DNA of 64,000 nucleotides from Candidatus Dormiibacterota bacterium (GCA_036824145.1 DAITAT010000001.1:42427-106426); one strand, 5' to 3'; positions 2,135 to 41,878 are shown, counted from the first letter of the stretch. The notes: generated from the sequence alone by a model not told the origin. Numbers and translations: made by a program.

Positions 2135-2698
2135 ATGCGGTGCTTTGCGGCGCTGGGGTTGGAGGATGGCACCTCAGAGGCGCTGCGGCGGTGGCTCGAT
2201 GGCGCTCGGGCTGAGTTTGCCGAGCTGGCCGTAACGCCGGCGGAGAATCTCCATCTGACCCTGGCTTTCCTGGGCGAGATCGACGCCGGGCAGGTCGAGT
2301 CGGCGGGGGCTGCGGTCCAGGCGGCAGCCGAGGGTCGGGCGCCCTGGCGCTTGCGGTGGACCGCACCGGGGGCGTTCCCGTCGGCCTCGCGGCCACGGGT
2401 ACTGTGGCTGGGCGTCGACGGCGGCGAGGCGCTTCGGGAGGTCCACCGGGCGCTCGCCGAAGCTCTGGCCGGCGCCGGGCTCCCGGTGGAGGAGAGAGCC
2501 TTCCGGCCGCATCTGACGCTGGCACGGGTCCGGCGCGGCGAGATCAGCCGCGAGCGCTACCGCGAGGTCGTGGCTCACCTCGAGACGTTGCCGGAGGTGG
2601 GCCCGTCACGGGCGGTGGCGCTGGTCCTGTACGAGAGCCGGCTAGGAGGCGGGCCTGCGGTCCATGTACCTTTGGTTACGGCGAAGTTGCTGGGGTAG
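2135..2698 (+). CDS. thpR: RNA 2',3'-cyclic phosphodiesterase (2H phosphoesterase, ThpR/LigT family)
   Basis: Two H-x-T-x motifs (HLTLAFLG and HLTLARV); about 187 aa if start at MRCFAALG. Confidence 0.75.
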   Translation: MRCFAALGLEDGTSEALRRWLDGARAEFAELAVTPAENLHLTLAFLGEIDAGQVESAGAAVQAAAEGRAPWRLRWTAPGAFPSASRPRVLWLGVDGGEALREVHRALAEALAGAGLPVEERAFRPHLTLARVRRGEISRERYREVVAHLETLPEVGPSRAVALVLYESRLGGGPAVHVPLVTAKLLG

Positions 2699-2765
2699 GC
2701 GGCTCGGGTCGGCCGGGCTTCAGCCATTGGGCTGTGCACCCCGTGGGTATCATTTCCGTCTGCGC

Positions 2766-2842
2766 GCGCCCGTAGCTCAGTGGATTAGAGCGTCGCACTA
2801 CGGATGCGAAAGTCGGGAGTTCGAGTCTCTCCGGGCGCGCCA
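2766..2842 (+). tRNA. tRNA-Arg (anticodon ACG)
   Basis: Cloverleaf read by hand: acceptor GCGCCCG/CGGGCGC, D-arm TAGCTCAGTGG, anticodon loop CTACGGA, T-loop TTCGAGT, discriminator G then encoded CCA. Confidence 0.85.
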
Positions 2843-2889
2843 CATCCTGCGCTCATCCAGGTCGTCTTTCGTTCCGGTATCTTCGGCGG

Positions 2890-4005
2890 GTGTCCGCGGA
2901 GCTGATCCAGCGCTTCCAAACCATGCTCGACCCCATGCTCGGCGATCTCCAGCAGCTGGTCGAGGCGGAGTCGCCGTCGCGCGACCGGGAGGCTGTCGCC
3001 GCTTGCACCGCACTGGTCGCGTCGATGGGCCAGCGCCTCCTCGGGGCGCTGCCGGACCGCGCCGAGGTCGATGGCCAGCCCTACTTGAGCTGGAGTTTCG
3101 GCGCCCCCAGGGTGGCCTTGCTCTGCCACCTCGACACGGTCTGGCCGATGGGGACGATCGACCGCCTGCCCTTCCGGGTCGATGGCGATCGCGCCTATGG
3201 CCCCGGCATCTTCGACATGAAGGCCAGCGTCGTCCAATCTTTCCATGCCCTGGCTGAGCTTCCCTCCCGCGACGGCATCGAGCTGCTCATCACATCCGAC
3301 GAGGAGATCGGCTCGCCCACCTCCCGGCCGGTGATCGAGGCGCTCGCGCGTCGCGTCGAGGCAGTCCTGGTGATCGAGCCCAGCCACAACGGCGCCCTCA
3401 AGATCGGTCGCAAAGGGGTTGGCATGTATCGCCTCCACATCCGCGGCCGGGCGGCGCACGCCGGCTTCCCCCATGAGGGCGTCAATGCCACTCTCGAGCT
3501 CGCGCACCAGGTCCTGGCCGTGGCCGCCCTGGCCGATGAGGAGGCGGGCACCACCGTCACCTCCACCGTCGCCGCCTCAGGCACCACCAACAACGTCGTC
3601 CCGGCCGAGGCCCGCGTGGACATCGATGTTCGCGTTCCCAACGCCGCCGAGCAGGATCGCGTAGACGCGGCACTGAGAGGACTGCAGCCGTGGGTCCCGG
3701 GCGCCACCCTCGGGCTCAGCGGCGGTCCCAACCGCCCCGCGCTGGAGCCGGCCGCGACGATGGCGCTTTTTGAAGTCGCCCGCCGGATCGGCAGCGAGAT
3801 CGGGCTCGGGGAGCTGACCGGCGCCACCGTCGGCGGGGCGTCGGACGGCAACTTTGCGGCTGCGGTGGGGGCGCAGACCCTCGACGGGCTGGGCTGCACC
3901 GGTGATGGCGCGCACGCCGACCACGAGCACATCGTCATCTCGAGCCTGCCTGAACGCGCCGCCCTTCTGACCGCCCTCCTGCAGGACCTGCTGGCGCAGA
4001 GTTAG
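2890..4005 (+). CDS. M20 family metallopeptidase (carboxypeptidase G2 / acetylornithine deacetylase-like)
   Basis: Motifs HLDTV, GPGIFDMKA, ITSDEEIGSP typical of M20/M25/M40. Confidence 0.75.
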   Translation: MSAELIQRFQTMLDPMLGDLQQLVEAESPSRDREAVAACTALVASMGQRLLGALPDRAEVDGQPYLSWSFGAPRVALLCHLDTVWPMGTIDRLPFRVDGDRAYGPGIFDMKASVVQSFHALAELPSRDGIELLITSDEEIGSPTSRPVIEALARRVEAVLVIEPSHNGALKIGRKGVGMYRLHIRGRAAHAGFPHEGVNATLELAHQVLAVAALADEEAGTTVTSTVAASGTTNNVVPAEARVDIDVRVPNAAEQDRVDAALRGLQPWVPGATLGLSGGPNRPALEPAATMALFEVARRIGSEIGLGELTGATVGGASDGNFAAAVGAQTLDGLGCTGDGAHADHEHIVISSLPERAALLTALLQDLLAQS

Positions 4006-4728: not shown

Positions 4729-5532
4729 ATGCCTGAAATGCCCGAGCTCGAGGTCCTCTGCCAGTACCTCGGCCCCCGGCTGGTCGGCGAGAAGATCGCG
4801 AAGGTCAGCGTGTCGCCGAAATTCGGCTTCCTCCTGCGCACCCCACCGGCGGACCTGGCCCGGACCCTCGAGGGCCGCACCATCGATCGGCTGTGGCGTC
4901 GGGGGAAATTCCTCGTCATCGACGCGGGCGACCAGCAGCTGGTCATCAACCCGATGCTCGGCGGCCGGCTGCACTGGTCGGGGTCGGTGGGCAAGCCGCC
5001 GCCGGCAACGATCCTGTCGGCGAACCTCGCCGGCGGCGAGACGCTCCGCCTGACCGACTTCGCCCGCATGGCGCGGGTGTACCTGGTCGACAGCGGCGAG
5101 CTGGACGGCGTCCCCGGGTGGTCAGAGCTCGGCCCCGAAGCCGACAGCGTCAGCCTCGACCACTTTCGGGCTCGGATCCGGCGCCACCCCGGCGAGCTCA
5201 AGAACCTGCTCCGCAACCAGGCCTTCGTGTCCGGCATCGGCAACGCCTACTCGGACGAGATACTCTTCGGCGCCAAGATGCTGCCGCTGCGCAAGCGATC
5301 GAGCCTTGGCGCCGACGACGTGGAATCGCTTCATGCCGCCGTCGTGGACGTGCTGGCCGACGCTGTCGAGCAGATCCGGGCCCAGCCTGGCTACCAGCCC
5401 CACAAGCAGGACCGGGGCTTCATGAAGGTGCACCTGCGTGGGGGAGAGGGGTGCCCTCGATGCGGCCATCGAATCGCCGAGATCAAGGCCCGCGGCGAGC
5501 TCTTCAACTACTGTCGCGGCTGCCAGAAGTGA
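4729..5532 (+). CDS. Formamidopyrimidine/Nei-family DNA glycosylase (Fpg/MutM/Nei)
   Basis: N-terminal MPEMPELEV (catalytic Pro2/Glu3), C-terminal C4 zinc finger CPRCG...CRGC. Confidence 0.85.
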   Translation: MPEMPELEVLCQYLGPRLVGEKIAKVSVSPKFGFLLRTPPADLARTLEGRTIDRLWRRGKFLVIDAGDQQLVINPMLGGRLHWSGSVGKPPPATILSANLAGGETLRLTDFARMARVYLVDSGELDGVPGWSELGPEADSVSLDHFRARIRRHPGELKNLLRNQAFVSGIGNAYSDEILFGAKMLPLRKRSSLGADDVESLHAAVVDVLADAVEQIRAQPGYQPHKQDRGFMKVHLRGGEGCPRCGHRIAEIKARGELFNYCRGCQK

Positions 5533-5587
5533 CGGCGCCCCTCCCGGTTCGCCGACCTCCAGGCGCAGCCTCGGCTACGATCAACTG

Positions 5588-5962
5588 ATGGGCGCCTTCT
5601 CCGACTTCAACTCGCAGCGGCCGTACAAGGTCTGGCCCGGCGTGGTGGCGCGGGCGTTCCACGGCCAACGCCTGACGATGGCCCTGGTCGAGCTCGAGCC
5701 CGGCAAGCCGGTGGCAGAGCATCACCACGACAACGAGCAGCTCGGGTTCGTCCTGCGGGGCGAGATGGAGATGAAGATCGGGGACGAGACCCGGCACCTG
5801 CATCCTGGAGATGCCTACGTGATCCCCAGCGAGATGCCTCACTCGGTGGTTCGCACCGGCCCCCGGGGTTGCGTCGTCGCGGACATCTTCGCGCCCGTCC
5901 GCGCCGACTGGGAGGCGGCCGAGCGCGCCGATCCGAGCCCCGGGAGCTGGCCGTCGGGCTAG
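5588..5962 (+). CDS. Cupin-domain protein
   Basis: Cupin_2 His/Glu motif HHHDNEQ...HPGDAYVIPSEMPHS; start chosen at MGAFSDF to avoid overlap with fpg. Confidence 0.6.
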   Translation: MGAFSDFNSQRPYKVWPGVVARAFHGQRLTMALVELEPGKPVAEHHHDNEQLGFVLRGEMEMKIGDETRHLHPGDAYVIPSEMPHSVVRTGPRGCVVADIFAPVRADWEAAERADPSPGSWPSG

Positions 5963-5975
5963 CCTGAGGGGGCGG

Positions 5976-6632
5976 GTGAGCATGACCAGGGAACGCACCC
6001 AGCTTGGCCGCCACCCCGAGCGAGGCCGCGAGGGCCGCGACCTGGTCAACGCCATCCTGGACGAGGCCCTGGTCTGCCATGTCGGGTTTGTCGCCGACGG
6101 CTACCCGACCGTGATCCCCACCCTCCATGCGCGCTCGGATGACACCCTCTACTTGCACGGCTCGCCCGCGAGCCGGATGCTCCAAGCGGCGCCGGGCGCC
6201 GAGGTTTGCGTCACGGTCACCCTGCTGGACGGGGTGGTGATGGCGCGTTCGGCCTTCAACCACTCGATGAACTACCGCTCGGTGATGGTCTTCGGCCAGC
6301 CGCGCGTCGTCACCGACGCCGCGGAGAAGGCGGCCGCCTTCCACGCCCTCGTCGAGCATGTGGCGAAAGGCCGCTGGGATGATTCCCGGCAACCCACGCC
6401 AGCGGAGATGACCGCCACCACCGTGCTGGCGATCTCCCTCGATGAGGCATCGGCCAAGGTCCGCAGCGGCCCGCCTGTCGACGAAGACGGCGACCTTGCC
6501 CTGGGCGTCTGGGCGGGCGTAGTGCCGCTTCGGACCGTGGCGGGTGACCCCATACCGGATCCCCAGCTATTTCCGGAAATCGACGTCCCCGAATACGCCC
6601 GCGACTACCGTCGCCCGCATGCGACCGAATAG
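5976..6632 (+). CDS. Pyridoxamine 5'-phosphate oxidase family FMN-binding protein
   Basis: PNPOx-like split-barrel sequence pattern, 218 aa. Confidence 0.6.
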   Translation: MSMTRERTQLGRHPERGREGRDLVNAILDEALVCHVGFVADGYPTVIPTLHARSDDTLYLHGSPASRMLQAAPGAEVCVTVTLLDGVVMARSAFNHSMNYRSVMVFGQPRVVTDAAEKAAAFHALVEHVAKGRWDDSRQPTPAEMTATTVLAISLDEASAKVRSGPPVDEDGDLALGVWAGVVPLRTVAGDPIPDPQLFPEIDVPEYARDYRRPHATE

Positions 6633-10967: not shown

Positions 10968-12254
<1,287 letters not shown>

Positions 12255-12308
12255 TCCTCCTGGCCTGAGGAGGCCTCTGGAGCCGCTAGACCTTAAGCTT
12301 TACGCCGT

Positions 12309-14957
12309 ATGGCGGCGGAGATGGACAAAGCCTGGAAGCCCCAGGAGGTCGAACGTGAGCTCTACCGACAATGGGAGGAAGCCGGGCTCTTTGTAGCCGA
12401 CAACAAATCCGACCGACCGCGTTTCAGCATCGTCCTCCCCCCGCCCAACACCACCGGCGAGCTGCACCTTGGCCACGCCACCAACCACTCCCTCCAGGAC
12501 ATCTACTGCCGCTATAAGCGGATGCGGGGATTTGAGGTTCTGTGGTTGCCCGGTACCGACCACGCCGCCATCGCCACCCAGAACGTGATCGAGAGGCAAC
12601 TGGCCTCCGAGGGCACCTCCAAGGAGGAGCTGGGCCGCTCCGCCTTCGAGAAACGGGTGGCGGCCTGGTACGAGAGCGTGGGCAAGGCCATCCTCGACCA
12701 GGAGCGGCGCTTGGGCCTTAGCCTCGACTGGTCGCGCCTGCGCTTCACCCTCGACGAGCGATACGTGCGCGCTATTCGCGAAGCCTTCGTGCGCCTCTTC
12801 AACGACGGCCTTCTCTACCGTGGTCCGCGGATCGTCAACTGGTGCCCGCGCGATCGGTCATCGATAAGCGACCTCGAGGTCGAGTGGCGGGAACACGAAG
12901 ACCCGCTCTACTACATCCGCTACGACTTGGTCGACGGTGACGGCCACCTGGTGGTGGCCACGGTCCGACCCGAGACGATGCTTGCGGACACGGCGGTGGC
13001 CGTCAACCCCAAGGATGAGCGCTACCAGCGGTTCATCGGACGCAAGGCCTGGCTCCCAATCGTCGGCCGCGAGCTCGAGGTGGTTGGCGACGAGGCCGTC
13101 GACATGAAGTTCGGTACCGGCGCCTTGAAAGTCACGCCGGGCCACGACGCGATGGATTACGAGATCGGCCAACGGCACGGCCTCGAGATCCTCACCTGTA
13201 TCGACAAGAAAGGCAACATCACCAGCGACGACTGGGTCCCCGACACCCTGTGGACCCTCGACGCGGCCACCGCCCGCGGCCGCATCGTGACGATGCTCAA
13301 GGAGCGCGACCACCTGGTCAGGGTCGAGCCCCATGTCCACTCCGTGGGCCACTGCGACCGGTGTGGCGAGATCATTGAACCACTCGTCGACGAGCAATGG
13401 TGGTGCTCGATGGAGGAGCTGCGTGACCCCGCGGTCAAAGTGGTCGAGGAGGGGAAGGTCGGCTTCGTCCCCGAGCGCTGGACCAAGGTCTACCTCGACT
13501 GGATGGCAGGCCTGCGCGACTGGAACGTGTCGCGCCAGCTCTGGCTAGGGCACCGAATCCCGGTCTACTACTGCGGAAAGGATCACACCTTCGCCTCGGT
13601 TGAGGAGCCGATCAAGTGCCCGGATTGCGGCGATCGCAAGCTGCGCCAGGATCCCGACGTCCTCGACACCTGGTTCTCCTCGGCACTGTGGCCCTTCGCG
13701 ACCATGGGCTGGCCCGAGAAGACCGACGACCTGGACGCGTTCTTTCCCACCGACGTGCTTGGCACCGCCCGCGACATCCTCTTCCTCTGGGTGGCGCGAA
13801 TGATCATGACCTCACTGCGATTCACCGGCGAGATCCCCTTCCACACCGTCCTCATGCACGCCACCATCCAGGCCCCCGACGGCCAGCGGATGAGCAAATC
13901 CAAGGGCAACGGCGTCGACCCCATCCAGATGATCGACCGCTACGGCGCCGACGCGGTGCGGGCCTGGGCCGCGGCGGTGGGGCTGCGCGGCCAGGACGTG
14001 CGCTTTGACGAGGAGCTGATCCGCTCCTACCAGCTCTTCGCCAACAAGCTCTGGAACGTCGCCCGCCTGGTACTGACCAACGTCGACGGCGTAGCGGTCC
14101 AGCCGGTCGGCGCGCTGGCGGAGCGCGACTGCTTCGACGCCTGGATCCTAAGCCGTCTCGACGCCACCGTCGTGGAGGTGACGGACTCGCTGGAGCGCCA
14201 TCGCCCGGGTGATGCCATCACCGCGATCTACGAGTTCGCCTGGCACGAGTTCGCGGACTGGTACCTGGAGGCCGCCAAGCCGCGCTTCCGAGCCCCCGCC
14301 GACGACCCCGGCCATGTCACCGCCGCGTCGACCGCGCTCCACGTCCTCGACACCACCCTGAGGCTGCTGCATCCCTACATGCCGTTTGTGACCGAGACGG
14401 TCTGGCAGAGGCTTCCCGGCGAACGGCCGGCCATGATCGCCCGCGACGCCGCCGCCTGGCCCGAGCCAGCGGGCCTCGCCGACGCCGGCGCCGATGCCGC
14501 CATGGCGACGATGTTCGAGCTGGTGCGGGAGCTTCGGGACGCGCGCAAGGCCATCGGCGCCGGCGCGCGCGAACGCGTCCCTGTCACCGCCTCTCGGGTG
14601 GCGCCGGATTCTGCGGCGACGCTGCTGGACGGCGACTGCGGCCGGACGGCGATCGCTTGGCTGGCGTCGATCGACTTCGTCGAGGAGCTGCCGGCGCCGT
14701 CGGTGCGCACCCTGGTGGTGGCTGGTCTCGAGGTCGCGGTGAGCCCGCCCGAGCGCTCCAGCGGGCCCGCTGACCACGCTGCCCTGGAGCGTGAGCTCGA
14801 TGCCGCGCGGGCTAATATCGCTAGGCTGGAAGGTCAGTTGGCCAACCAGCAGTTCCTCAGCAAGGCCAAGCCCGAAGTGGTCCAGCAGGCCCGGGACCGC
14901 TTGGCCGCGGCCCAAGAGCGACTCGCCACCCTGGAGGACGCCTTCTCACGTGCTTAA
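12309..14957 (+). CDS. valS: Valyl-tRNA synthetase
   Basis: HIGH-type motif TGELHLGHA, KMSKS motif, C-terminal coiled coil; 882 aa. Confidence 0.95.
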   Translation: MAAEMDKAWKPQEVERELYRQWEEAGLFVADNKSDRPRFSIVLPPPNTTGELHLGHATNHSLQDIYCRYKRMRGFEVLWLPGTDHAAIATQNVIERQLASEGTSKEELGRSAFEKRVAAWYESVGKAILDQERRLGLSLDWSRLRFTLDERYVRAIREAFVRLFNDGLLYRGPRIVNWCPRDRSSISDLEVEWREHEDPLYYIRYDLVDGDGHLVVATVRPETMLADTAVAVNPKDERYQRFIGRKAWLPIVGRELEVVGDEAVDMKFGTGALKVTPGHDAMDYEIGQRHGLEILTCIDKKGNITSDDWVPDTLWTLDAATARGRIVTMLKERDHLVRVEPHVHSVGHCDRCGEIIEPLVDEQWWCSMEELRDPAVKVVEEGKVGFVPERWTKVYLDWMAGLRDWNVSRQLWLGHRIPVYYCGKDHTFASVEEPIKCPDCGDRKLRQDPDVLDTWFSSALWPFATMGWPEKTDDLDAFFPTDVLGTARDILFLWVARMIMTSLRFTGEIPFHTVLMHATIQAPDGQRMSKSKGNGVDPIQMIDRYGADAVRAWAAAVGLRGQDVRFDEELIRSYQLFANKLWNVARLVLTNVDGVAVQPVGALAERDCFDAWILSRLDATVVEVTDSLERHRPGDAITAIYEFAWHEFADWYLEAAKPRFRAPADDPGHVTAASTALHVLDTTLRLLHPYMPFVTETVWQRLPGERPAMIARDAAAWPEPAGLADAGADAAMATMFELVRELRDARKAIGAGARERVPVTASRVAPDSAATLLDGDCGRTAIAWLASIDFVEELPAPSVRTLVVAGLEVAVSPPERSSGPADHAALERELDAARANIARLEGQLANQQFLSKAKPEVVQQARDRLAAAQERLATLEDAFSRA

Positions 14958-15405
14958 GAACCTAGGCTCGCTGCTGATCATCCTGGGGATCTACTCGGTC
15001 GTCCTCTACCTGGCGATCGCCTACTGGGCCCTCAAGGATGCCCGCGAGCGCTCCGATTCGTGGGGGCTGCACTACTTCGCCCTCTTCATCAACCTGCTGC
15101 TGCCCCTGCTGGGCCTGCTCATCTACCTGCTGGTGCGGCCCGGCACCACGATGGTCGAGCGGCGCGCCCTCGAACTGGAGTCCCAGGCCCTGGCCCTGAC
15201 TGACGGCGAAGAAGGCCAACGGCCGTGTCCAGCCTGCGGGCGGGACATCGAGAGGGACTTCATCCTCTGTCCTTACTGCCAGTCGCGCTTCGCCAAGCGC
15301 TGTCCTTCGTGTCAGAAGTCGGTCAGGCTCGGGTGGAGCCTCTGCCCTTATTGCGCGACGAGCCTGGAGATGGGCAAGGTCTCGCGCGCCGCCGGTCTGG
15401 ACTGA
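14950..15405 (+). CDS. Membrane protein with C-terminal double zinc ribbon
   Basis: GTG at 14950 overlapping valS stop; two TM helices then CPACG...CPYC...CPSC...CPYC. Confidence 0.45.
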   Translation: MLKNLGSLLIILGIYSVVLYLAIAYWALKDARERSDSWGLHYFALFINLLLPLLGLLIYLLVRPGTTMVERRALELESQALALTDGEEGQRPCPACGRDIERDFILCPYCQSRFAKRCPSCQKSVRLGWSLCPYCATSLEMGKVSRAAGLD

Positions 15406-15440
15406 CTCTCACCCTCCAGGTCCTTGGCCCAAGCCTGGTC

Positions 15441-17096
15441 GTGGGGGCCTTCGCCCTCTGCCTGTTGGTATGGCCGCGGGCATGGCTTTTCCTCCTCGGT
15501 GAGGTCACCGCCCTGGCGTTGCTGGGCCGGCTCTGGGCTCTGACCGGCGCGGGACCGCTGTCGCAAGCGATATACGAGCCGCTTTCGGGGGTGCAGCTGA
15601 CCTACCGGGTCGAACACCTGGGCCTGCTCTTCGCCATCACCGGGGTGGCCATGGGCCTGCTGCTGACGCTGCCGTGGCTGGCGCGACCGCTGGCCCGCAC
15701 CGGCAGGCGGGGGGCCTGGGTGCTGCTGGCCCAGTTCGGGATGCTCAGCGCGGTGCTTGCGGGTGACCTTGAGTCGATGGCTGCCGGCTGGGCCATTGCG
15801 GTTGGCGGCCTCACGCTCCTCTGCCTGCTGCAGCGCCGCGTGGCTCCTCCCATCGCGATGGACGGTCCGGCTTCCCGGTTTGTCGCCATCCAGGCTTCCA
15901 CCGCGGTGCTCCTGCTGGCCGGAGCGGTGGCGGCGGAGACCAGTGCCGGCACGGGCGCTTTCGATTCGATCCCGGTGACCGCCTTCGATGTACGCGCCGT
16001 GGTCCTGCTGGCCGCGGCACCGGTGACGGCGCTGCTCACGATCCAGCTCCTCTGCCAAGCCATCCACCGCCCGCTGCTGGCGGCGCTGGCGGCGTCCAGC
16101 GTGCTGATGCCGATGTCGGCCTACCTCCTCACCCGCCTGTATGACCTGTGCGGCGGGCGGCTGCCCGACAGCCGCGTGAACGCCGCCCTGGTCCTGGTCG
16201 GCGGCGTGACGGCACTGGGATTTGCCCTGGCTTCGGTCTGGGCCGTCGACCTGGGTGCGGCGGTGGCGCGACTGGGGCAGGCCGCGGCGGGCCTGACACT
16301 GGTGGCGGCGGGGGCCGGCACCGGGGTCGCCATCGCGGCATTGGAACTGGCCCCGATCAGTCTCGGTCTGGGATTGGCGGCGCTGCTGGCCATGGTCCAG
16401 GCCGGCGGCGGCCGCCTGCCGTCAACTTCGGGGGGCCGATGGAGTTCGGTGATCGTGACGGCACCCGCCCTGCTGGCGATCGCATGGGCGGCAGGGTTCC
16501 CGGTTGGCCTCGCCGCGATCGAGCGAGTGGCTTCAGCCAGCGCCGGGGTCGACGCCGGAGGGCTGCTCACGCCGGCCGCCGGCCCCGCGATCCTGGCGCT
16601 ACCCGTGATGGTGCTGGCGGCATACGCCTGCGGGCGGTTTGGTGGGGGTCAGCGCCCCGCCCCCGAGGCTCGCCTGCGACTGGCCCTACTGGCGGTCGCG
16701 CTGGGCGCCAGCAGCCTCGCGCTAGGCCAGTTGGAGCCGCTGAGCGCGGGCTTGGCAGCGGCCGTGGTCAGGGTGCCGAGTGCCGATCTCCAGAGCACGC
16801 TCGGCTCGCTGGTACCGGGAACCCAGGTCTCGATCGGCCTCACCGCCCTGACCTTGGTGCTGGTCCTGGCGATCGGCCGGATGCGTGGGACGGCAATCGA
16901 CCAGGGTTTCCCGGGCGCGGTTGAATCGCTGCCGCCGCGTCTGGCGGTCGCGCCCGGCATCTACGGGATCCGTTTCGCGTCGGCCGCCAGGCGTCGAGGT
17001 CTGACGCTGGCGGCGATCGCCCGCCGGCACGCTTTTCTCAGCGGACTGGTGGTCTCCGCCGCGGCCGCTGTCGCCGCCAACGCGATGGTTCGATGA
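15441..17096 (+). CDS. Ala/Leu-rich polytopic membrane protein A (start uncertain; ATG 15225 would overlap previous gene)
   Basis: At least 10 hydrophobic segments; stop overlaps next start (ATGA at 17093). Confidence 0.45.
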   Translation: MGAFALCLLVWPRAWLFLLGEVTALALLGRLWALTGAGPLSQAIYEPLSGVQLTYRVEHLGLLFAITGVAMGLLLTLPWLARPLARTGRRGAWVLLAQFGMLSAVLAGDLESMAAGWAIAVGGLTLLCLLQRRVAPPIAMDGPASRFVAIQASTAVLLLAGAVAAETSAGTGAFDSIPVTAFDVRAVVLLAAAPVTALLTIQLLCQAIHRPLLAALAASSVLMPMSAYLLTRLYDLCGGRLPDSRVNAALVLVGGVTALGFALASVWAVDLGAAVARLGQAAAGLTLVAAGAGTGVAIAALELAPISLGLGLAALLAMVQAGGGRLPSTSGGRWSSVIVTAPALLAIAWAAGFPVGLAAIERVASASAGVDAGGLLTPAAGPAILALPVMVLAAYACGRFGGGQRPAPEARLRLALLAVALGASSLALGQLEPLSAGLAAAVVRVPSADLQSTLGSLVPGTQVSIGLTALTLVLVLAIGRMRGTAIDQGFPGAVESLPPRLAVAPGIYGIRFASAARRRGLTLAAIARRHAFLSGLVVSAAAAVAANAMVR

Positions 17097-17656
17097 CGGC
17101 CGCGCAGGCGGCCGAGCTGGCGCTGTCCTGGCTGGCGCTCCTGGCGGCCATCGCTGCGGTGCTGTCGCCTCAGGTCTCGCGTTGGTCATGGGGCGCCGCG
17201 GGGCTGCTCTTTTCGGTGTGGCTGGCTTTGATGGCGCCGGTGGGCATCGGCGCCGCCCTTGCCGCCGGCAGCCTGATAGGCCTGTTCCTGGAGGGCGACG
17301 GTGAGCTGGCTGAGCCCGATTTCACACGCCTGACGCGGCGCCTTGGCCTGCTGCTGGCCGGGTTCGCGGCGGCGGTCGTGGTGATGGTGCGCGTCGCCCA
17401 GGTCGACCCCGGCGATACGCCCTACGTGTTTCCCGCCCTGGCCACCGGGATCGTGGCGCTGATCGCCCTCACTGCCGCCGTCGGGCAGGCGGAGATCCAG
17501 CGGGGCGCGCGTCTGCTGCTGGTGCTGGCAGCCGTCGGCTGGACCATCGCCACCGCCGGGACCCAGCCTGCCGCCGCCATCTTGGCCGGGGCGGTATTGC
17601 CGCTGCTGGCCCTCACCGGGAGGCTCGGGCCGCCCGCGGAAAGCCCGATCCCATGA
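17093..17656 (+). CDS. Ala-rich small polytopic membrane protein B (187 aa)
   Basis: 4-5 hydrophobic segments; ATGA overlaps at both ends (17093, 17653). Confidence 0.5.
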   Translation: MTAAQAAELALSWLALLAAIAAVLSPQVSRWSWGAAGLLFSVWLALMAPVGIGAALAAGSLIGLFLEGDGELAEPDFTRLTRRLGLLLAGFAAAVVVMVRVAQVDPGDTPYVFPALATGIVALIALTAAVGQAEIQRGARLLLVLAAVGWTIATAGTQPAAAILAGAVLPLLALTGRLGPPAESPIP

Positions 17657-18900
17657 ACCTGGAGGACCTCAATCTGGCGGCGCTGCTGGCGGTGCCGGCG
17701 GTGGCCGCGATCGCGTGCCGGCTCCGACCCGGCTCGGCAGTGCCCTTCACCGGGGTCGGTCTAGTGGCGGGCGCCCTTTTCCTGGCGATCCTGCCGGTCG
17801 ACCATGAAGCTGGCGCCGCCGGGCTGACGCTGGCGGTCAGCGGGTTCGGCAAAGGAGCCCTGTGGCTGTCGATGTTCGGCGTGGGCCTGGCGGTGCTGGC
17901 TGTCAACCCTCGACCGGGGGCAGATGGCGCGATCGCCTGGTGTGCCCAGCTGCTGGCTACCGTGGTGGTCGCGGCGCGATCGCCACTGCTGCTGCTGGCG
18001 GCGCTGCTTCTCCTGGCTGTGCTCCTGCCGCGCCTCGAGCCTGATCTTGATCTCGGCCTGTCGTGGTCCCGCCGAATCTCCGCGGGCGCGGTGCTGGCCG
18101 CGGCCGCGCTGACCGTCACCGCTGCCACGCATCTGCCCGTGTCGGAGCACGCCACCGCGGTGCTGCTGGTGATCGGCTTCATGGTCCTGCTGGGCGCGAT
18201 GCCCTTCGGTGTCGGGCTGCGAGAGTGGCTGATGCACGCCCGGGCTCGGCTGGCGATCCTCGCCGCCACCTGCCTGCTGCCGGCGCTGGTCACCGCGCTG
18301 GTCAACTCGCTGGGGGCTCTGAGCCAGCTCCACCTGGCGGCGCCGGCCGGCCTCGTGATCGCCGCCTTTGGTGCCCTCACGCTGCTGGTCGGGGCGCTCG
18401 CCCAGCTCGGCGCCGCAGGCTGGCGCGGCCTCGCCGCCGATGGCGTCATCGCCGACCTCGGCCTGGTATTGGTGGGCGTCGGGGCGCTCGACATCAACGG
18501 CCTCGAGGGGGCTTCGCTGGCGCTTCTGGTGATGGCGCTGGCGCGACCCTTCCTCTATCTCCTGGAGGAGATGGCGATGTCCGGGGCCTGGGCCTGGATG
18601 GGCGCCGGTGCGGCCCTCTTCACCGCCGCTGGCCTGCCGCCGACGGTGGGTTTCGCGGCCCGGCTGCTGGTGCTGGGATCGGCGTTCCATCTCCATCCAC
18701 TCCTGGCGGCGGCGGTGGTGGCGGGCGTCGTCATCGAGGTCTTTGCCTCGGCTCGGCTGCTCCTGCGCCTGGGGATTCCCCTGGTCGGGCCCGGACCGCG
18801 AACCGGCGTGGTCCCGGTGGCGTTGGCGGTCACGATGCTGGCCCTGGTCGCCGGGTTGGCTCCCGGCGGGGTTCTCACCTACGTCTGGAACCTTGGTTGA
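17653..18900 (+). CDS. Ala-rich polytopic membrane protein C with degenerate complex I / Mrp antiporter-like (Proton_antipo_M-like) C-terminal signature
   Basis: AAGLPPTVGFAARLLVLGSA resembles the conserved laGiPPlaGFfgKf motif of NuoL/M/N/MrpD; about 12 hydrophobic segments; stop overlaps maf start. Confidence 0.5.
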   Translation: MNLEDLNLAALLAVPAVAAIACRLRPGSAVPFTGVGLVAGALFLAILPVDHEAGAAGLTLAVSGFGKGALWLSMFGVGLAVLAVNPRPGADGAIAWCAQLLATVVVAARSPLLLLAALLLLAVLLPRLEPDLDLGLSWSRRISAGAVLAAAALTVTAATHLPVSEHATAVLLVIGFMVLLGAMPFGVGLREWLMHARARLAILAATCLLPALVTALVNSLGALSQLHLAAPAGLVIAAFGALTLLVGALAQLGAAGWRGLAADGVIADLGLVLVGVGALDINGLEGASLALLVMALARPFLYLLEEMAMSGAWAWMGAGAALFTAAGLPPTVGFAARLLVLGSAFHLHPLLAAAVVAGVVIEVFASARLLLRLGIPLVGPGPRTGVVPVALAVTMLALVAGLAPGGVLTYVWNLG

Positions 18901-19504
18901 CCGAGCGCCCCTGATCCTCGCGTCGGCCTCGCCGCGACGGCGGCAGCTGCTCGAAAATGCCGGACTCGACTTCGTAGTCGACGTATCGACCTTCGACGAG
19001 GACCGCGTTCGCCACCTGCCCCCTCGACTCCAGGCGCTGCTGGCCGCCCGGGGAAAGGCGCTCGATGTGCACCGCCGCCACCCTGACGCGTGGATCGTCG
19101 GAGCCGACACGGTTGTGGCACTGGAGGGCGTCGCCTTGGGCAAGCCCCGCCACCCACACGATGCCGCGCTGATGCTGCGCTCGCTTTCAGACCGAGATCA
19201 CTTTGTTCACAGCGCTCTCTGCCTGGTGGCCCCCGATGGAAGGCGGGCCTCGGCGCTGGCCTCGAGCCAGGTTCGGTTGGCGCGTCTGACTCCCAGCCAG
19301 GTTCGCGCCTACGTTGCCGGTGGCGAGCCGCTGGGCAAGGCTGGGGCGTACGCGATCCAGGGCCAGGCCGGCGAATTCGCCCGGGTCGTCAGGGGTCGCC
19401 GGGACACCGTCATCGGCCTCTCGATGAGCCTGCTGGCCCGGCTTCTGCGCCAACTCGGTCATCCGGCCGCGAGAGGCCTCTCTGATAACCTCGATCCCTC
19501 GTGA
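18893..19504 (+). CDS. maf: Maf-like nucleoside triphosphate pyrophosphatase (septum formation protein Maf)
   Basis: LILASASPRRRQLLENAGLDF... and GAYAIQG motifs; TTG start overlapping preceding gene. Confidence 0.85.
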   Translation: MVDRAPLILASASPRRRQLLENAGLDFVVDVSTFDEDRVRHLPPRLQALLAARGKALDVHRRHPDAWIVGADTVVALEGVALGKPRHPHDAALMLRSLSDRDHFVHSALCLVAPDGRRASALASSQVRLARLTPSQVRAYVAGGEPLGKAGAYAIQGQAGEFARVVRGRRDTVIGLSMSLLARLLRQLGHPAARGLSDNLDPS

Positions 19505-19614
19505 GCGTGATTGACTGCAACCCGCAAATCCGGGTACCCGCCCACGCTTCGTGGGCGTGGGTGTGATGGGTTGCGGGCTACCCCGAACCCCTTCTTAGAT
19601 GAGTGTGATTGACT
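19505..19614. repeat. 12-bp direct repeat G(C/T)GTGATTGACT, two copies 98 bp apart, flanking a GC hairpin (19540-19556) in the maf-mreB intergenic region
   Basis: gcgtgattgact at 19505-19516 and gtgtgattgact at 19603-19614; hairpin gcccacg-ctt-cgtgggc between them. Confidence 0.45.
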
Positions 19615-20654
19615 CAGTTCTGGGGTTGTGGTCTTCAGACATGGGGATCGACCTCGGTACCGCCAACACTCTGGTGCACGTCCGCGGCCAGGGGATCGTC
19701 CTCAACGAGCCCTCGGTCGTGGCCATGTCCAAGCCCGGCAACGTGGTGCTGTCGGTTGGCGTCGAGGCGCGCAAGATGCTCGGTCGGACCCCTGCTGACA
19801 TCGTCGCCATGCGCCCCCTCAAGGACGGCGTCATCGCCGACTTCGACGTCACCGAGCAAATGATCAAGTACTTCATCGCCAAGGTGCACAACCGGAGCTG
19901 GCACATAAGCCGCCCGCGAACCGTGCTGGGCGTCCCCAGCGGTGTTACCGAGGTCGAGAAGCGCGCCGTCACCGACGCCGCCATCCACGCCGGCTGCCGC
20001 GAGGCCTACCTGGTGGAAGAGCCGATGGCGGCCGCGATCGGGGCCGGCCTGCCGATCCAGGAGGCCACCGGCTCGATGATCGTCGACATCGGTGGTGGCA
20101 CCAGTGAGGTCGCCGTCGTCTCGCTGGGCGGAATCGTAGCCAGCAAGTCGATCCGCATCGGCGGCGACGAGATGGACCAAGGCATCGTCCAGTTCGTCCG
20201 GCGCAACTTCAACTTGCTGATCGGGGATCGCACCGCCGAGGACATCAAGATCGCGATGGGCTCCGCCTACCCGCTGCCCGAGGACAAGAAGTTCCACGTC
20301 CGCGGCCGCGACCTCATGACCGGCCTGCCCAAGACGGTTGAGATGACCACGATCCAGGTTCGCGAGGCGCTTGCGGACGTGGTCGCGGCGATCGTCACGA
20401 CTGTCAAGGAGACCCTCGAGGAGACGCCACCGGAGCTGATCACCGACATCATGGACCGGGGCGTGATCCTGGCCGGGGGCGGGGCCCTGCTCCGCGGGCT
20501 GGATGAGCTCCTCGCCCACGAGACGATGATGCCGGTCTATGTTGCCGAGGACCCGCTGACGACGGTGGTTCGCGGCACCGGCCTGGTCCTGGAAGAGCTG
20601 GACACCCTGAAGCGGGTGGTGATCACCTCCCAGAAGGCCAAAGCCCTGCGTTAG
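19599..20654 (+). CDS. mreB: Rod shape-determining actin homologue MreB
   Basis: GIDLGTANTLV phosphate-1 motif, DIGGGTSEVAV; 351 aa. Confidence 0.9.
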   Translation: MSVIDSVLGLWSSDMGIDLGTANTLVHVRGQGIVLNEPSVVAMSKPGNVVLSVGVEARKMLGRTPADIVAMRPLKDGVIADFDVTEQMIKYFIAKVHNRSWHISRPRTVLGVPSGVTEVEKRAVTDAAIHAGCREAYLVEEPMAAAIGAGLPIQEATGSMIVDIGGGTSEVAVVSLGGIVASKSIRIGGDEMDQGIVQFVRRNFNLLIGDRTAEDIKIAMGSAYPLPEDKKFHVRGRDLMTGLPKTVEMTTIQVREALADVVAAIVTTVKETLEETPPELITDIMDRGVILAGGGALLRGLDELLAHETMMPVYVAEDPLTTVVRGTGLVLEELDTLKRVVITSQKAKALR

Positions 20655-20712
20655 CATCTCGGCCCTCGGCTGGGCCGGTTGGCCTTAATCCTCCGCTGTT
20701 AGCCTTGCTTCG

Positions 20713-21543
20713 GTGATGCGACGGGGCTCACAGATTCGAGCCAGTTCCTATTTCGTGATCGCGGTGGCGCTGGCCATCGTGCTCATCGGCGTGGGGCAGA
20801 GCCTTCGCTTTGACGCGGCACGCTCGGTGACCGCGACTGTGTTCGCCCCCTTGCAAGGGCTCGTCACGGGCGTCACCAACAGGGTGGGAGGAGCGTTTTC
20901 GACAGTGACGTCGATCGGCAGCCTCGCCGACCAGAACCGGCAACTCAAGCAGCAGGTGGCCGATCTCCAGCGCCAGCTCGGCGATCGGCAGCTGTCGGGC
21001 GTCACCGACCAGCAGCTGAGGGCGATGCTGGGCCTTCGCGACAACCTCCACATCCACACCGTCGCGGCCGAGGTCATCGGGTTGGACCCCGAAGCGCTGA
21101 CCCAGACGATCACCATCCATGCCGGCTCGAACCAGGGCATCCGTAAGGGAATGTCGGTCCTGGCGCAACATGGCCTGGTCGGCAGAGTCGTCTCGGTGCA
21201 GTCCAGCACCGCGGCGGTACGCCTCATCAGCGACGCCCAGCTCCCCGTCAACGTCGAGCTCGCCACCACCCACCTCGGGGGCACCGTCAAGGTCACCAAC
21301 GGCCAGCTGGTGGAGGAGATCTTGGGCGCCCCCACCGACCTCAAACTCAGCCGTGGCGATCTCCTGGTCACCTCGGGCCTGGGTGGCAACTACCCCAAGG
21401 GCCTGCCGGTGGCCGAGGTGGTCAAGTTCCAGTACAAGCCGGCCGAGATCACCCAGAGCGCGGAGGTGGCGCCCCTGGACGACCTCGCCCACCTCGAATA
21501 CGTGATCGTCGACACCGACTTCGCGCCGGAGGGCGGTCTTTGA
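20713..21543 (+). CDS. mreC: Rod shape-determining protein MreC
   Basis: N-terminal TM, coiled coil QNRQLKQQVADLQRQL, beta-rich C-terminus; position after mreB. Confidence 0.8.
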   Translation: MMRRGSQIRASSYFVIAVALAIVLIGVGQSLRFDAARSVTATVFAPLQGLVTGVTNRVGGAFSTVTSIGSLADQNRQLKQQVADLQRQLGDRQLSGVTDQQLRAMLGLRDNLHIHTVAAEVIGLDPEALTQTITIHAGSNQGIRKGMSVLAQHGLVGRVVSVQSSTAAVRLISDAQLPVNVELATTHLGGTVKVTNGQLVEEILGAPTDLKLSRGDLLVTSGLGGNYPKGLPVAEVVKFQYKPAEITQSAEVAPLDDLAHLEYVIVDTDFAPEGGL

Positions 21544-40497: not shown

Positions 40498-41706
40498 ATG
40501 ACGTTGACGACCGGCCTGCCCGGCGCGGCGGCGCTGGTCCTGACCGCCTGCATTGGCCAGGGCAGCTCCGCGCCGGCAAGTTACGCGGGCAAGACCATTG
40601 CCCTGGGCGCGGTGTTGTCGGTGACCGGCGCCGGCGTCAATTACGGCCCGAAGCAGAAGAAAGGTATCGACCTGGCCGTTGAGACAGTCAACCGGGCCGG
40701 GGTGAACGGCGGCCGGATTTCGGTTCATGTCCAGGACGACACCTCCGATCCACGACTTGCCACGACTGAGACCGAGACCCTGGTCAACACCAAACACGTG
40801 CTCGGCCTCATCGGCCCTACGCTTACGATCGCGGCCACCCCGGTGCACACCGTGGCTCAGGCGAAGCACACGCCCGTGCTCGCGACGTCTGAGACCGGCA
40901 AGCACGTGGTCGGCGATTGCGCTGCGGCCGCCGGGTGCGGCTACATCTTCCGCGACAGCCTCGGCGAGGCCGTGGCGATCCCGGCGAACGTCAAAGCGGC
41001 GGCGAACAAGTCCCACCCGCGAACCGGTCTCATCTTCTATGCGGGGGACTACACGCCGTCGGTGGAGGCGCGTGACACTTTCCGGCAAGCCTTCGCCGAC
41101 AACGGCATCACTGTCGCCAGCGGCGGTCTGCTCGCGTTCTCGAAGCACGACACCGATTTCAGGGCGATGGTCACCAGCGCCAAGGACCTCAAGGCTGGCA
41201 TCTGGGCGATCTCGGCGTTGGGCGATCGCCCCGGGACCATCGTCGCGGAGGCGCGCGCCCAGGGGTACACCGGCCCCATCATCGGCGACGACAGCTTCAA
41301 CACCTACACCGCCAGCCAGGCCGCCGGCAAGGCCGGCGTGGGCGCCCAGGCAGGCAGCGGTTACTGGCTGGGCAACGGCGACGCGGCGAACCAGTCGTTT
41401 GTCCACGCTTACAAGGTCAAGTACAGGGACAGCAAGGGAACTCCCGAACTACCCGATGAGGTCGCCGCCCAGGCCTATTCCGCCGTCCTCCTTTTCGCCG
41501 AGGCGGCCAGGAACGCCAACCTCAGCTTCACCGACGTCGCCAAGGATCGGGCCGCCCTGCGCTCCGCGCTGGAGCGAGTCAGCCTGGCGACCCCGTTGGG
41601 CCGGTTCGGTTTCACCGGCGCGCACGACGCCCAGCAGCCCATCTGGATCAACGCCATCGACGGCAAGGGCGGGTTCGTGAACGTGACCTCGATTCCCGCC
41701 GGCTGA
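40498..41706 (+). CDS. ABC transporter substrate-binding lipoprotein, branched-chain amino acid (LivJ/Peripla_BP_6) type
   Basis: Lipobox LTAC; type I periplasmic-binding-protein pattern; orphan (no permease/ATPase nearby). Confidence 0.75.
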   Translation: MTLTTGLPGAAALVLTACIGQGSSAPASYAGKTIALGAVLSVTGAGVNYGPKQKKGIDLAVETVNRAGVNGGRISVHVQDDTSDPRLATTETETLVNTKHVLGLIGPTLTIAATPVHTVAQAKHTPVLATSETGKHVVGDCAAAAGCGYIFRDSLGEAVAIPANVKAAANKSHPRTGLIFYAGDYTPSVEARDTFRQAFADNGITVASGGLLAFSKHDTDFRAMVTSAKDLKAGIWAISALGDRPGTIVAEARAQGYTGPIIGDDSFNTYTASQAAGKAGVGAQAGSGYWLGNGDAANQSFVHAYKVKYRDSKGTPELPDEVAAQAYSAVLLFAEAARNANLSFTDVAKDRAALRSALERVSLATPLGRFGFTGAHDAQQPIWINAIDGKGGFVNVTSIPAG

Positions 41707-41718
41707 AGCCGGGGGTTG

Positions 41719-41743
41719 GGTGCGCCCGCCGGCCTGGCGCACC
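41719..41743 (+). terminator. GC-rich hairpin (8-bp stem GGTGCGCC/GGCGCACC, 9-nt loop) after the SBP gene; no U-tract
   Basis: Hand-identified inverted repeat. Confidence 0.3.
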
Positions 41744-41790
41744 GCCCCCTAAGGGCCAGATCCGCAGGGGCTCAGATCGGGGCCGCCGGG

Positions 41791-41796
41791 TAGAAT
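41791..41796 (+). promoter_or_regulatory. TAGAAT -10-like hexamer embedded in inverted repeat, 6 nt upstream of tRNA-Ala(CGC)
   Basis: gccgccggg-TAGAAT-cccggcggg; same hexamer family as rplU/bS22 promoters. Confidence 0.3.
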
Positions 41797-41802
41797 CCCG
41801 GC

Positions 41803-41878
41803 GGGCCCGTAGCTCAGCTGGGAGAGCGCTGCGTTCGCATCGCAGAGGCCGTCGGTTCGAGTCCGATCGGGTCCACCA
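41803..41878 (+). tRNA. tRNA-Ala (anticodon CGC)
   Basis: Acceptor GGGCCCG with G3:U70, anticodon loop TTCGCAT, T-loop TTCGAGT, CCA encoded. Confidence 0.85.

Follow-up and report, generated by a model that had tools for sequence, protein, structure and literature searches.

Three adjacent membrane-protein genes, designated A, B and C, were analyzed in a 64,000-nucleotide stretch of DNA from a Candidatus Dormiibacterota bacterium (GCA_036824145.1, DAITAT010000001.1:42427-106426; the whole stretch is referred to as the window), and our best reading is that they form a stripped-down module derived from an Mrp or complex-I-like enzyme. Complex I, Mrp antiporters, MBH/MBS, Hyf and DAB all pump by means of antiporter-like subunits, whose Lys/Glu relay is treated as invariant. 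Judged from alignments with these relatives, both large proteins of the module, A (551 aa; 15441..17096, plus strand) and C (415 aa; 17653..18900, plus strand), have kept the architecture of such subunits and lost the Lys/Glu relay: neither residue remains at any of its positions. With a probability of about 0.6, the package represents an MrpA(N)/MrpD-like assembly that does not perform canonical proton pumping and has been kept for another role.

Protein C is a full-length member of the antiporter-like fold, because profile searches, a confident structural model and Foldseek comparisons agree; a preliminary description of the window, made without database searches, had already proposed this relationship. 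The C sequence alone matched PF00361 with an E-value of 7e-4 and 19.3 bits, under the gathering cut-off of 21.5 bits. Among 19 aligned members of the C family, PF00361 was matched by 15 (E<=0.1; best 1e-6) and other families by none, and four members of the family carry a precomputed PF00361 assignment. Weak NCBIfam matches of C were to several MrpD, NuoM, NuoN and HyfB models. Homologues of C formed 27 clusters among 5.8 billion proteins, and the family profile, when compared with PDB sequences, recovered subunits of MBS (6u8y_X, 1.2e-6) and MBH (6cfw_H, 1.5e-6), the remaining matches all being ND4, NuoN, ND2 or ND5. The AlphaFold model of C (predicted local distance difference test, pLDDT, 88.5; predicted template modelling score 0.92) contains 14 transmembrane (TM) helices with a TM2-TM3 hairpin, and both discontinuous helices that the preliminary description had suggested looking for, TM7 and TM12, are present with breaks at residues 181-186 and 327-331. 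Comparison of this model with the PDB by Foldseek gave 174 matches at E<=1e-3, headed by the MrpD subunit 9a6h_B; the 50 listed of these 174 were all antiporter-like subunits with query-normalised template modelling scores of 0.68-0.83, and scores for MrpD, NuoM, NuoN and NdhD ranged from 0.73 to 0.83 at E-values of about 1e-10.

The two motifs from which the relationship of C had originally been recognized, resembling laGiPPlaGFfgKf and LAYSSIxHxG, align in the profile alignments where they had been predicted. The LAYSSIxHxG counterpart occupies residues 260-275 (LAADGVIADLGLVLVG; 18430..18477, plus strand) and has Asp268 in place of His. The break of TM7 at residues 181-193 (GAMPFGVGLREWL; 18193..18231, plus strand) preserves a remnant of the K-x-P-x-x-P-x-H-x-W-L-P-D-A-H block, in which the position of LysTM7 is taken by Ala, Met or Leu, and the break of TM12 lies in residues 325-344 (AAGLPPTVGFAARLLVLGSA; 18625..18684, plus strand), where Arg337, invariant in 19 of 19 sequences, stands at the position of NuoN Lys395 and NuoM Glu407. 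The earlier statement that the canonical WLPDAMEGPTP block and the conserved charged residues are missing was borne out; of WLPDAxxxPTP there is left only PFGVGLREWL, which aligns with P-VVPLHGWLPDAH. The TM12 position is nevertheless not empty, since A and C both carry an invariant Arg there.

Protein A is a further antiporter-like subunit, strongly diverged and apparently of the NuoL/MrpA(N) type with an L-type N-terminus and a 14-TM core, and its recognition as such goes beyond the preliminary description, in which only C had been given this affinity. Searches with A against Pfam and against PDB sequences returned no match, and its homologues formed 20 clusters. When the family profile of A was compared with 1.84 billion representatives, only 27 proteins were matched, among them P0074 (E=1.6e-5), which is colinear with A over profile positions 8-472 (about 465 positions) and is itself a PF00662 and PF00361 protein with best scores to MrpA/NuoL models. 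P0080, also a PF00361 protein, was matched at E=8.5e-4. A direct match of A to PF00662 was not found; its N-terminus aligns to the PF00662 region of P0074. Likewise, hhalign comparison of the A family profile with E. coli NuoL aligned residues 38-121 of A with residues 58-147 of NuoL (E=0.0075), pairing QLTYRVEHLGLLF with IGFNLVLDGLSLTM and LAGDLESMAAGWAIAV with LADNLLLMYLGWEGVG. The best structural matches of A were L-type subunits, but the AlphaFold model of A was poor (pLDDT 51.9) and was kept out of residue-level claims.

Three segments of A can be placed on the known fold by their motifs. Residues 52-64 (QLTYRVEHLGLLF; 15594..15632, plus strand) correspond to the beta-hairpin/TM3 motif common to L-type subunits, which reads IQFTYRVDGLSMLF in P0074 and IGFNLVLDGLSLTM in E. 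coli NuoL. Residues 106-121 (LAGDLESMAAGWAIAV; 15756..15803, plus strand) hold the TM5 motif, compared with LADNLLLMYLGWEGVG of NuoL, with Ala118 at the position of GluTM5. The break motif of TM12 lies at residues 350-363 (AAGFPVGLAAIERV; 16488..16529, plus strand), where Arg362, invariant in 14 of 14 sequences, occupies the position of LysTM12; this motif pairs with GVPLLNGFVAKW of P0074 in the alignment to the A-family hidden Markov model, and hhalign comparison of A with C aligned it to AAGLPPTVGFAARL. At the C-terminus, residues 508-551 (16962..17093, plus strand) comprise an Arg-rich helix (YGIRFASAARRRGLTLAAIARRH) followed by the last hydrophobic helix. The model places helices at 504-529 and 531-550 within the last 48 residues, Arg511, Arg517-519 and Arg528 are conserved, and the hydrophobic moment peaks at 0.42 relative to a protein mean of 0.18. 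By comparison with NuoL and MrpA, this region may be a short equivalent of their lateral helix HL and anchor helix TM16.

The residues that distinguish A and C from their relatives are those of the relay. In active antiporter-like subunits these residues have been described as absolutely conserved and essential, with LysTM7 and LysTM12 lying on the broken helices, GluTM5 pairing with LysTM7, and a Lys of TM8 (His in NuoL) joining the half-channels (PMC7419157). In C, with E. coli subunit numbering taken from the genome record, NuoM Lys234/NuoN Lys217 is replaced by Ala, Met or Leu at the end of TM7a and NuoM Lys265/NuoN Lys247 by Ser, Ala or Thr, Arg337 stands at the TM12 position as described above, and residues 92-128, which span TM4-TM5, contain no acidic residue. 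On TM11, where MBH subunit H has a Lys (HALMKALLF), C carries the invariant Arg298, and the His of the SSIxHxG motif is replaced by Asp268. The changes in A, compared with P0074, are of the same kind, with the Glu of S-W-E replaced by Ala118, the TM7 Lys by Val or Thr, the His and Lys of TM8 by Ala and the invariant Pro224, respectively, the His and Lys of TM11 by Leu, and the TM12 Lys by the invariant Arg362. Inspection of the proton-path positions, which the preliminary description had proposed as a check, thus found Lys, Glu and His absent from the relay of both proteins. What survives is a good number of structural motifs, among them the GW of TM5, the Pro residues at the helix breaks, the Arg of ...IARLY and the D-L of DLKRL. 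Since the relay contains neither Lys nor Glu, canonical proton translocation has most likely been lost.

All three proteins are Ala/Leu/Gly-rich membrane proteins, as had been described, with 21-23% Ala, 18-21% Leu and 10-11% Gly; the Ala content of neighbouring conserved genes is 7-14%. The 1153 residues of A, B and C together contain one Lys and 58 Arg, and the ratio K/(K+R) is 0.02, compared with 0.26-0.54 in neighbouring conserved proteins. A genome-wide drift in GC content was considered as the full cause of the Lys-to-Arg changes and rejected, since the neighbours keep their K/(K+R) of 0.26-0.54 and the TM5, TM7 and TM8 positions have become apolar rather than Arg.

Protein B (187 aa; 17093..17656, plus strand), with about 6-7 TM helices judged from hydrophobic segments and eight clusters of homologues, has invariant Pro26, Trp33, Glu67, Arg100, Glu134 and Arg140. 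No similarity was found between B and Pfam (E<=10), all PDB sequences (searched with a profile) or E. coli NuoJ and NuoK (by hhalign). Comparison by hhalign with the profiles of A and C gave only a non-significant pairing of AEIQRGARLLLVLAA with the TM12 motif of C (E=0.17), and B' of the remote module L043, described below, showed no detectable similarity to B. As far as these sequence comparisons reach, B appears to be a small membrane protein confined to this family.

A, B and C are real genes under purifying selection. Relative to the orthologues of locus L004, the ratio of nonsynonymous to synonymous substitution rates (dN/dS) is 0.27 for A, 0.36 for B and 0.27 for C, and maf, valS and mreB have values of 0.27, 0.16 and 0.02, respectively. 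The GC content at third codon positions (GC3) of the three genes, 0.84-0.88, is of coding type. The start of A is most likely the GTG at 15441, because a longer open reading frame (ORF) from 15225 would overlap a zinc-ribbon (DZR) gene that ends at 15405; this GTG is the first start past the stop of that gene. The junctions are as the preliminary description had them, with ATGA stop/start overlaps at 17093 (A/B, CG ATGA CG) and 17653 (B/C, CC ATGA AC) and the stop of C overlapping the TTG start of maf at 18893. C ends in ...AAC CTT GGT TGA with its stop at 18898-18900, within the initial codons of maf, and the maf frame opens at TTG 18893 (MVDRAPLILASASPRR...), giving an overlap of 8 nt. Co-expression of A, B and C with maf is probable, and mreBCD-PBP2-rodA may be included; a scan of 12000-21000 for promoters and terminators gave nothing above shuffled expectation.

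The product of maf (18893..19504, plus strand), a member of the nucleotide pyrophosphatase family, gave full-length matches above the curated cut-offs of both PF02545 (E=4.8e-50, 170.3 bits; cut-off 27) and TIGR00172 (144.2 bits; cut-off 117.15). Upstream of A lies the DZR membrane gene (14950..15405, plus strand; 151 aa; PF12773, E=2.4e-10), whose start overlaps the stop of valS and whose product begins with 2-3 TM helices and ends with a double zinc ribbon. The window genes 5' of the module are tig, clpP, clpX, valS and the DZR gene, and those 3' of it are maf, mreB, mreC, mreD, PBP2, rodA, a DUF11 protein gene and obg. Between the DZR gene and maf there are only three genes, for which NCBIfam Mrp models scored 10-22 bits against cut-offs of 540-660. 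In agreement with the earlier statement that the window lacks Nuo, Mrp or hydrogenase partners, phmmer searches gave nothing at E<=0.01 when E. coli NuoA-N and the subunits of the Nuo-like cluster L046 were compared with all six reading frames of the 64-kb window. The neighbouring genes, scanned against Pfam and NCBIfam, likewise revealed no Nuo, Mrp small-subunit or hydrogenase partner, and none was seen in related loci. Two observations concern the surrounding DNA. The maf-mreB spacer (19505-19598) shares about 90% DNA identity with the corresponding spacer of L004, where synonymous divergence (dS) of the flanking genes is 0.5-1.0, and it holds an 11-bp GC-rich hairpin (CCCGCCCACGC..GTGGGCGTGGG) with a folding z-score of only -1.6 and no compensatory change seen; this spacer may serve mreB as a conserved leader or promoter element. 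A transfer-messenger RNA called by ARAGORN at 41598-41878, overlapping tRNA-Ala (cgc), is probably false, as Rfam finds only the tRNA there.

The family comprises about 27 sequence clusters, all metagenomic. Source labels are informative only for P0027 (GCA_035937285.1), given as Candidatus Dormibacteraeota, and L005, given as Candidatus Dormibacteria, and the lineage therefore appears to be Dormibacteria rather than Actinobacteria. A scan of genome contigs added only two family loci, its search pattern also matching ordinary NuoN genes, and a metagenome scan with low-complexity patterns added at least two near-identical loci. The gene order valS-DZR-A-B-C-(DUF4321)-maf was found in all six examined Dormibacteria-type loci (the P0007 contig, L001, L002, L004, L005 and L047/L048), so that the neighbourhood search suggested in the preliminary description placed A-B-C between valS and maf in each of them, and mreB, mreC, mreD, PBP2 and rodA follow wherever these contigs extend. 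A DZR gene lies directly 5' of A in the P0007 contig, L001, L002 and L047/L048, and an ORF of similar size is found there in L004 and L005; its product could belong to the module as a fourth component or regulate it. One of the six, L004 (DATMMS010000001.1), belongs to a metagenome-assembled genome labelled Candidatus Solibacter sp. (Acidobacteriota) and nevertheless carries the Dormibacteria-type valS-DZR-A-B-C-maf-mreB locus, with 65-99% identity to the window proteins; its taxonomic label or binning is probably wrong. The module had been described as stand-alone and packed against maf, which is correct for the window. In more distant relatives a DUF4321 gene of about 81 codons intervenes between C and maf (L001 11084-11329, L002 11172-11420, L047 12407-12652), and the window, L004 and the P0007 contig lack it; a direct overlap of C with maf, as in these three, is therefore peculiar to one subclade.

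Gene lengths of A, B and C are kept down to 33-37% identity, the ORFs are intact in every relative, and dozens of Pro, Gly, Trp, Arg and Asp positions are invariant across 33-40% identity. The divergence is nevertheless considerable, A being 33-37% identical where ValS is about 58% identical. A remote form of the module is found in L043 directly after valS, where A' (556 aa), B' (182 aa) and C' (406 aa) are followed by a fourth membrane protein and the DZR gene is absent; C' carries GVAPFGGFAARLLLL, and both A' and C' have Arg at TM12. In L044 (3722-8842), valS is followed by a remote A' (P0079), maf and then a DUF11/CLIPPER gene, with no mreBCD-PBP2-rodA between them and no called genes in the B'/C' region (5308-6245), and this lineage may have lost its elongasome genes together with part of the module.

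The nearest canonical relatives suggest that A and C descend from the membrane arm of a Nuo-like complex. In cluster L046, P0074 has its Lys/Glu/His set complete; after it come a truncated N-like subunit of 381 aa (2611-3756) and then NuoB-, H-, I-, C- and D-like genes, and P0080 (L045 389-2236) follows a NuoD-like gene. Both the L046 N-like subunit and P0080 carry the TM12 Arg, and in P0080 the Glu of TM5 is likewise replaced, by Ala; these two partly degenerate proteins may represent intermediate steps in the evolution of the relay-less A and C.

Among known systems, the module resembles the MrpA(N)/MrpD pair of Mrp antiporters (PDB 6z16, 7d3u, 7qru; PMC7419157), from which it differs in lacking MrpC, E, F and G and the C-terminal domain of MrpA, which is about 800-950 aa long as opposed to the 551 aa of A. 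In addition, B matches no Mrp small subunit, and GluTM5, LysTM7 and LysTM8 are absent from A and C, in which LysTM12 is Arg. With NuoL, NuoM and NuoN (ND5, ND4 and ND2) the two large proteins share the fold and the differentiation into L-type and M/N-type subunits, and motif remnants remain in register, namely GW(E) in TM5, P-x-H-x-WL, DLKRLxAYSS and GxPPxxGFxxK. In contrast to complex I, the relay is lost, identity is only 9-21%, and relatives of NuoA, H, J, K and the Q- and N-modules are absent from the window. By sequence, A and C are closest to MBH/MBS and to small Nuo-like, hydrogenase-related clusters such as L046, whose N-like subunit shares with C the TM12 Arg (GVPPTLGFVGRW) and the Asp in SSIxHxG (hhalign E=3.3e-4); however, the subunits of such clusters adjoin NuoB/C/D/H/I-type genes, whereas A-B-C has no redox partner nearby. 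A further comparison is offered by the DAB/Mps inorganic-carbon pumps, in which DabB, a stand-alone PF00361 protein that retains the canonical charged residues, works with the carbonic-anhydrase-like DabA (PF10070). Like the present module, they are encoded by a small operon in which an antiporter-like protein is used apart from complex I and Mrp, but none of A, B and C has a DabA-type Pfam match.

Taken together, A, B and C would form a lineage-specific membrane complex derived from the antiporter module of Mrp, complex I and energy-converting hydrogenase-type complexes, with A as the L-type subunit, C as the D/N-type subunit and B as a small extra subunit bearing two invariant glutamates. 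Complex formation is inferred from the arrangement in every solved relative, according to which A would sit beside C, the C-terminal helix of A would clamp C, and B would be placed at one flank. The role of such a complex would most likely be non-pumping, either structural or organizing within the membrane, or that of an ion-binding or sensing unit built on fixed Arg and carboxylate charges. The invariant neighbourhood makes a functional link to Maf or the elongasome attractive, yet gene order inherited within one phylum explains this neighbourhood equally well. The more specific proposal, a non-transporting 'pseudo-antiporter' scaffold with a new small subunit that is co-expressed with Maf and MreBCD-PBP2-RodA in Dormibacteria, is speculative and rather unlikely as it stands; if true, it would be the first recruitment of the complex I/Mrp pump module for cell-envelope organization or another non-bioenergetic role.

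Several points weigh against a non-pumping assembly of this kind. The N-terminal alignment of C to the reference subunits is unreliable, so that the claim for TM5 depends on the carboxylate-free TM4-TM5 region and not on a residue match. The scarcity of Lys (one in 59 basic residues) is partly a drift to GC-rich codons in a genome of 70% GC, and the Lys-to-Arg changes therefore need not be adaptive. The Arg of TM12 is also found in the subunits of the Nuo-like clusters (L046 2611-3756 and P0080) and is no proof of inactivity. Conserved buried charges of C (Arg140, Arg190, Asp263, Asp268, Arg298, Arg337 and Glu362) provide a possible unconventional ion path, which the invariant Glu67 and Glu134 of B could join. 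The assignment of the A C-terminus to HL depends on analogy and on a low-confidence part of a poor model, complex formation likewise depends on analogy, and the position beside maf and mreB may be gene order inherited within one phylum.

These charges are central to the rival that deserves most attention, although we consider it unlikely, according to which A-B-C is an active minimal Mrp-like transporter of cations and protons, or of another ion, in which Arg and Asp/Glu replace the relay, A acting as MrpA(N), C as MrpD and the carboxylates of B as the cation site. The order A-B-C echoes mrpA-mrpB-(C)-mrpD, the fold and the broken helices are kept in both large subunits, invariant charges occur at TM11/TM12 of C and TM12 of A as well as at Glu67 and Glu134 of B, the TM12 Arg is found in subunits of presumably active Nuo-like clusters, and purifying selection acts on all three genes. 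However, Arg is a poor proton shuttle, searches recovered no relatives of MrpC, E, F, G or the C-terminal domain of MrpA, B itself resembling none of them, and the GluTM5/LysTM7 pair and LysTM8, which have been described as invariant and essential (PMC7419157), are absent from both A and C. Alternatively, the three proteins could dock as additional membrane-arm subunits onto a complex I or group-4-hydrogenase-like complex whose genes lie elsewhere in the genome, as might be expected from the association of P0074, P0080 and the TM12-Arg C-like subunit of L046 with NuoB, C, D, H and I relatives and from the MBS and MBH subunits being the best PDB-sequence matches of C. This we regard as improbable, since the module lies between valS and maf in every examined locus and never beside redox or Nuo genes, none of which is present in the window, and since subunits without GluTM5 and LysTM7 could not extend the charged coupling axis (PMC7419157).

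The loss of catalytic residues, the drift to Ala, Gly, Arg and Leu and a divergence much faster than that of the neighbours would also be seen if A-B-C were decaying remnants of an old Mrp/Nuo-like operon. Such decay is very hard to reconcile with intact ORFs of constant length, dN/dS values of 0.27-0.36 (those of A and C equal to that of maf), coding-type GC3, invariant positions and the retention of the three-gene architecture in the remote L043, and it is given little credence. A resemblance to antiporter-like subunits arising by chance in low-complexity, Ala-rich membrane sequence could be suspected from C alone scoring under the PF00361 cut-off and from A having no Pfam match, but the full-length structural matches are confined to one fold family, profile matches reach 1e-6 for C and 1.6e-5 between A and P0074, and the alignments are colinear with their motifs in register, which leaves this explanation almost no probability.

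The fold and family are already known, and some IMG records automatically annotate C as 'MnhD/NuoN-like', while A and B are recorded only as 'hypothetical'. A literature search combining Dormibacter* with antiporter terms found no papers, and no description was found of A as an antiporter-like protein, of the stand-alone three-gene architecture, of relay loss in both large subunits or of the restriction to Dormibacteria. What makes the module of wider interest is that a whole clade keeps an L-type and a D/N-type subunit under selection after loss of the relay and with no redox or Na+ module nearby, and the Nuo-like clusters L046 and L045 are pointed to as holding partly degenerate intermediates. 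Two outcomes can be envisaged, a second non-pumping use of the fold or ion translocation through an Arg/carboxylate network, and either would inform models of coupling in this family. The analysis also provides an annotation for three 'hypothetical' genes that are conserved in Candidatus Dormibacteria, a widespread uncultured soil lineage.

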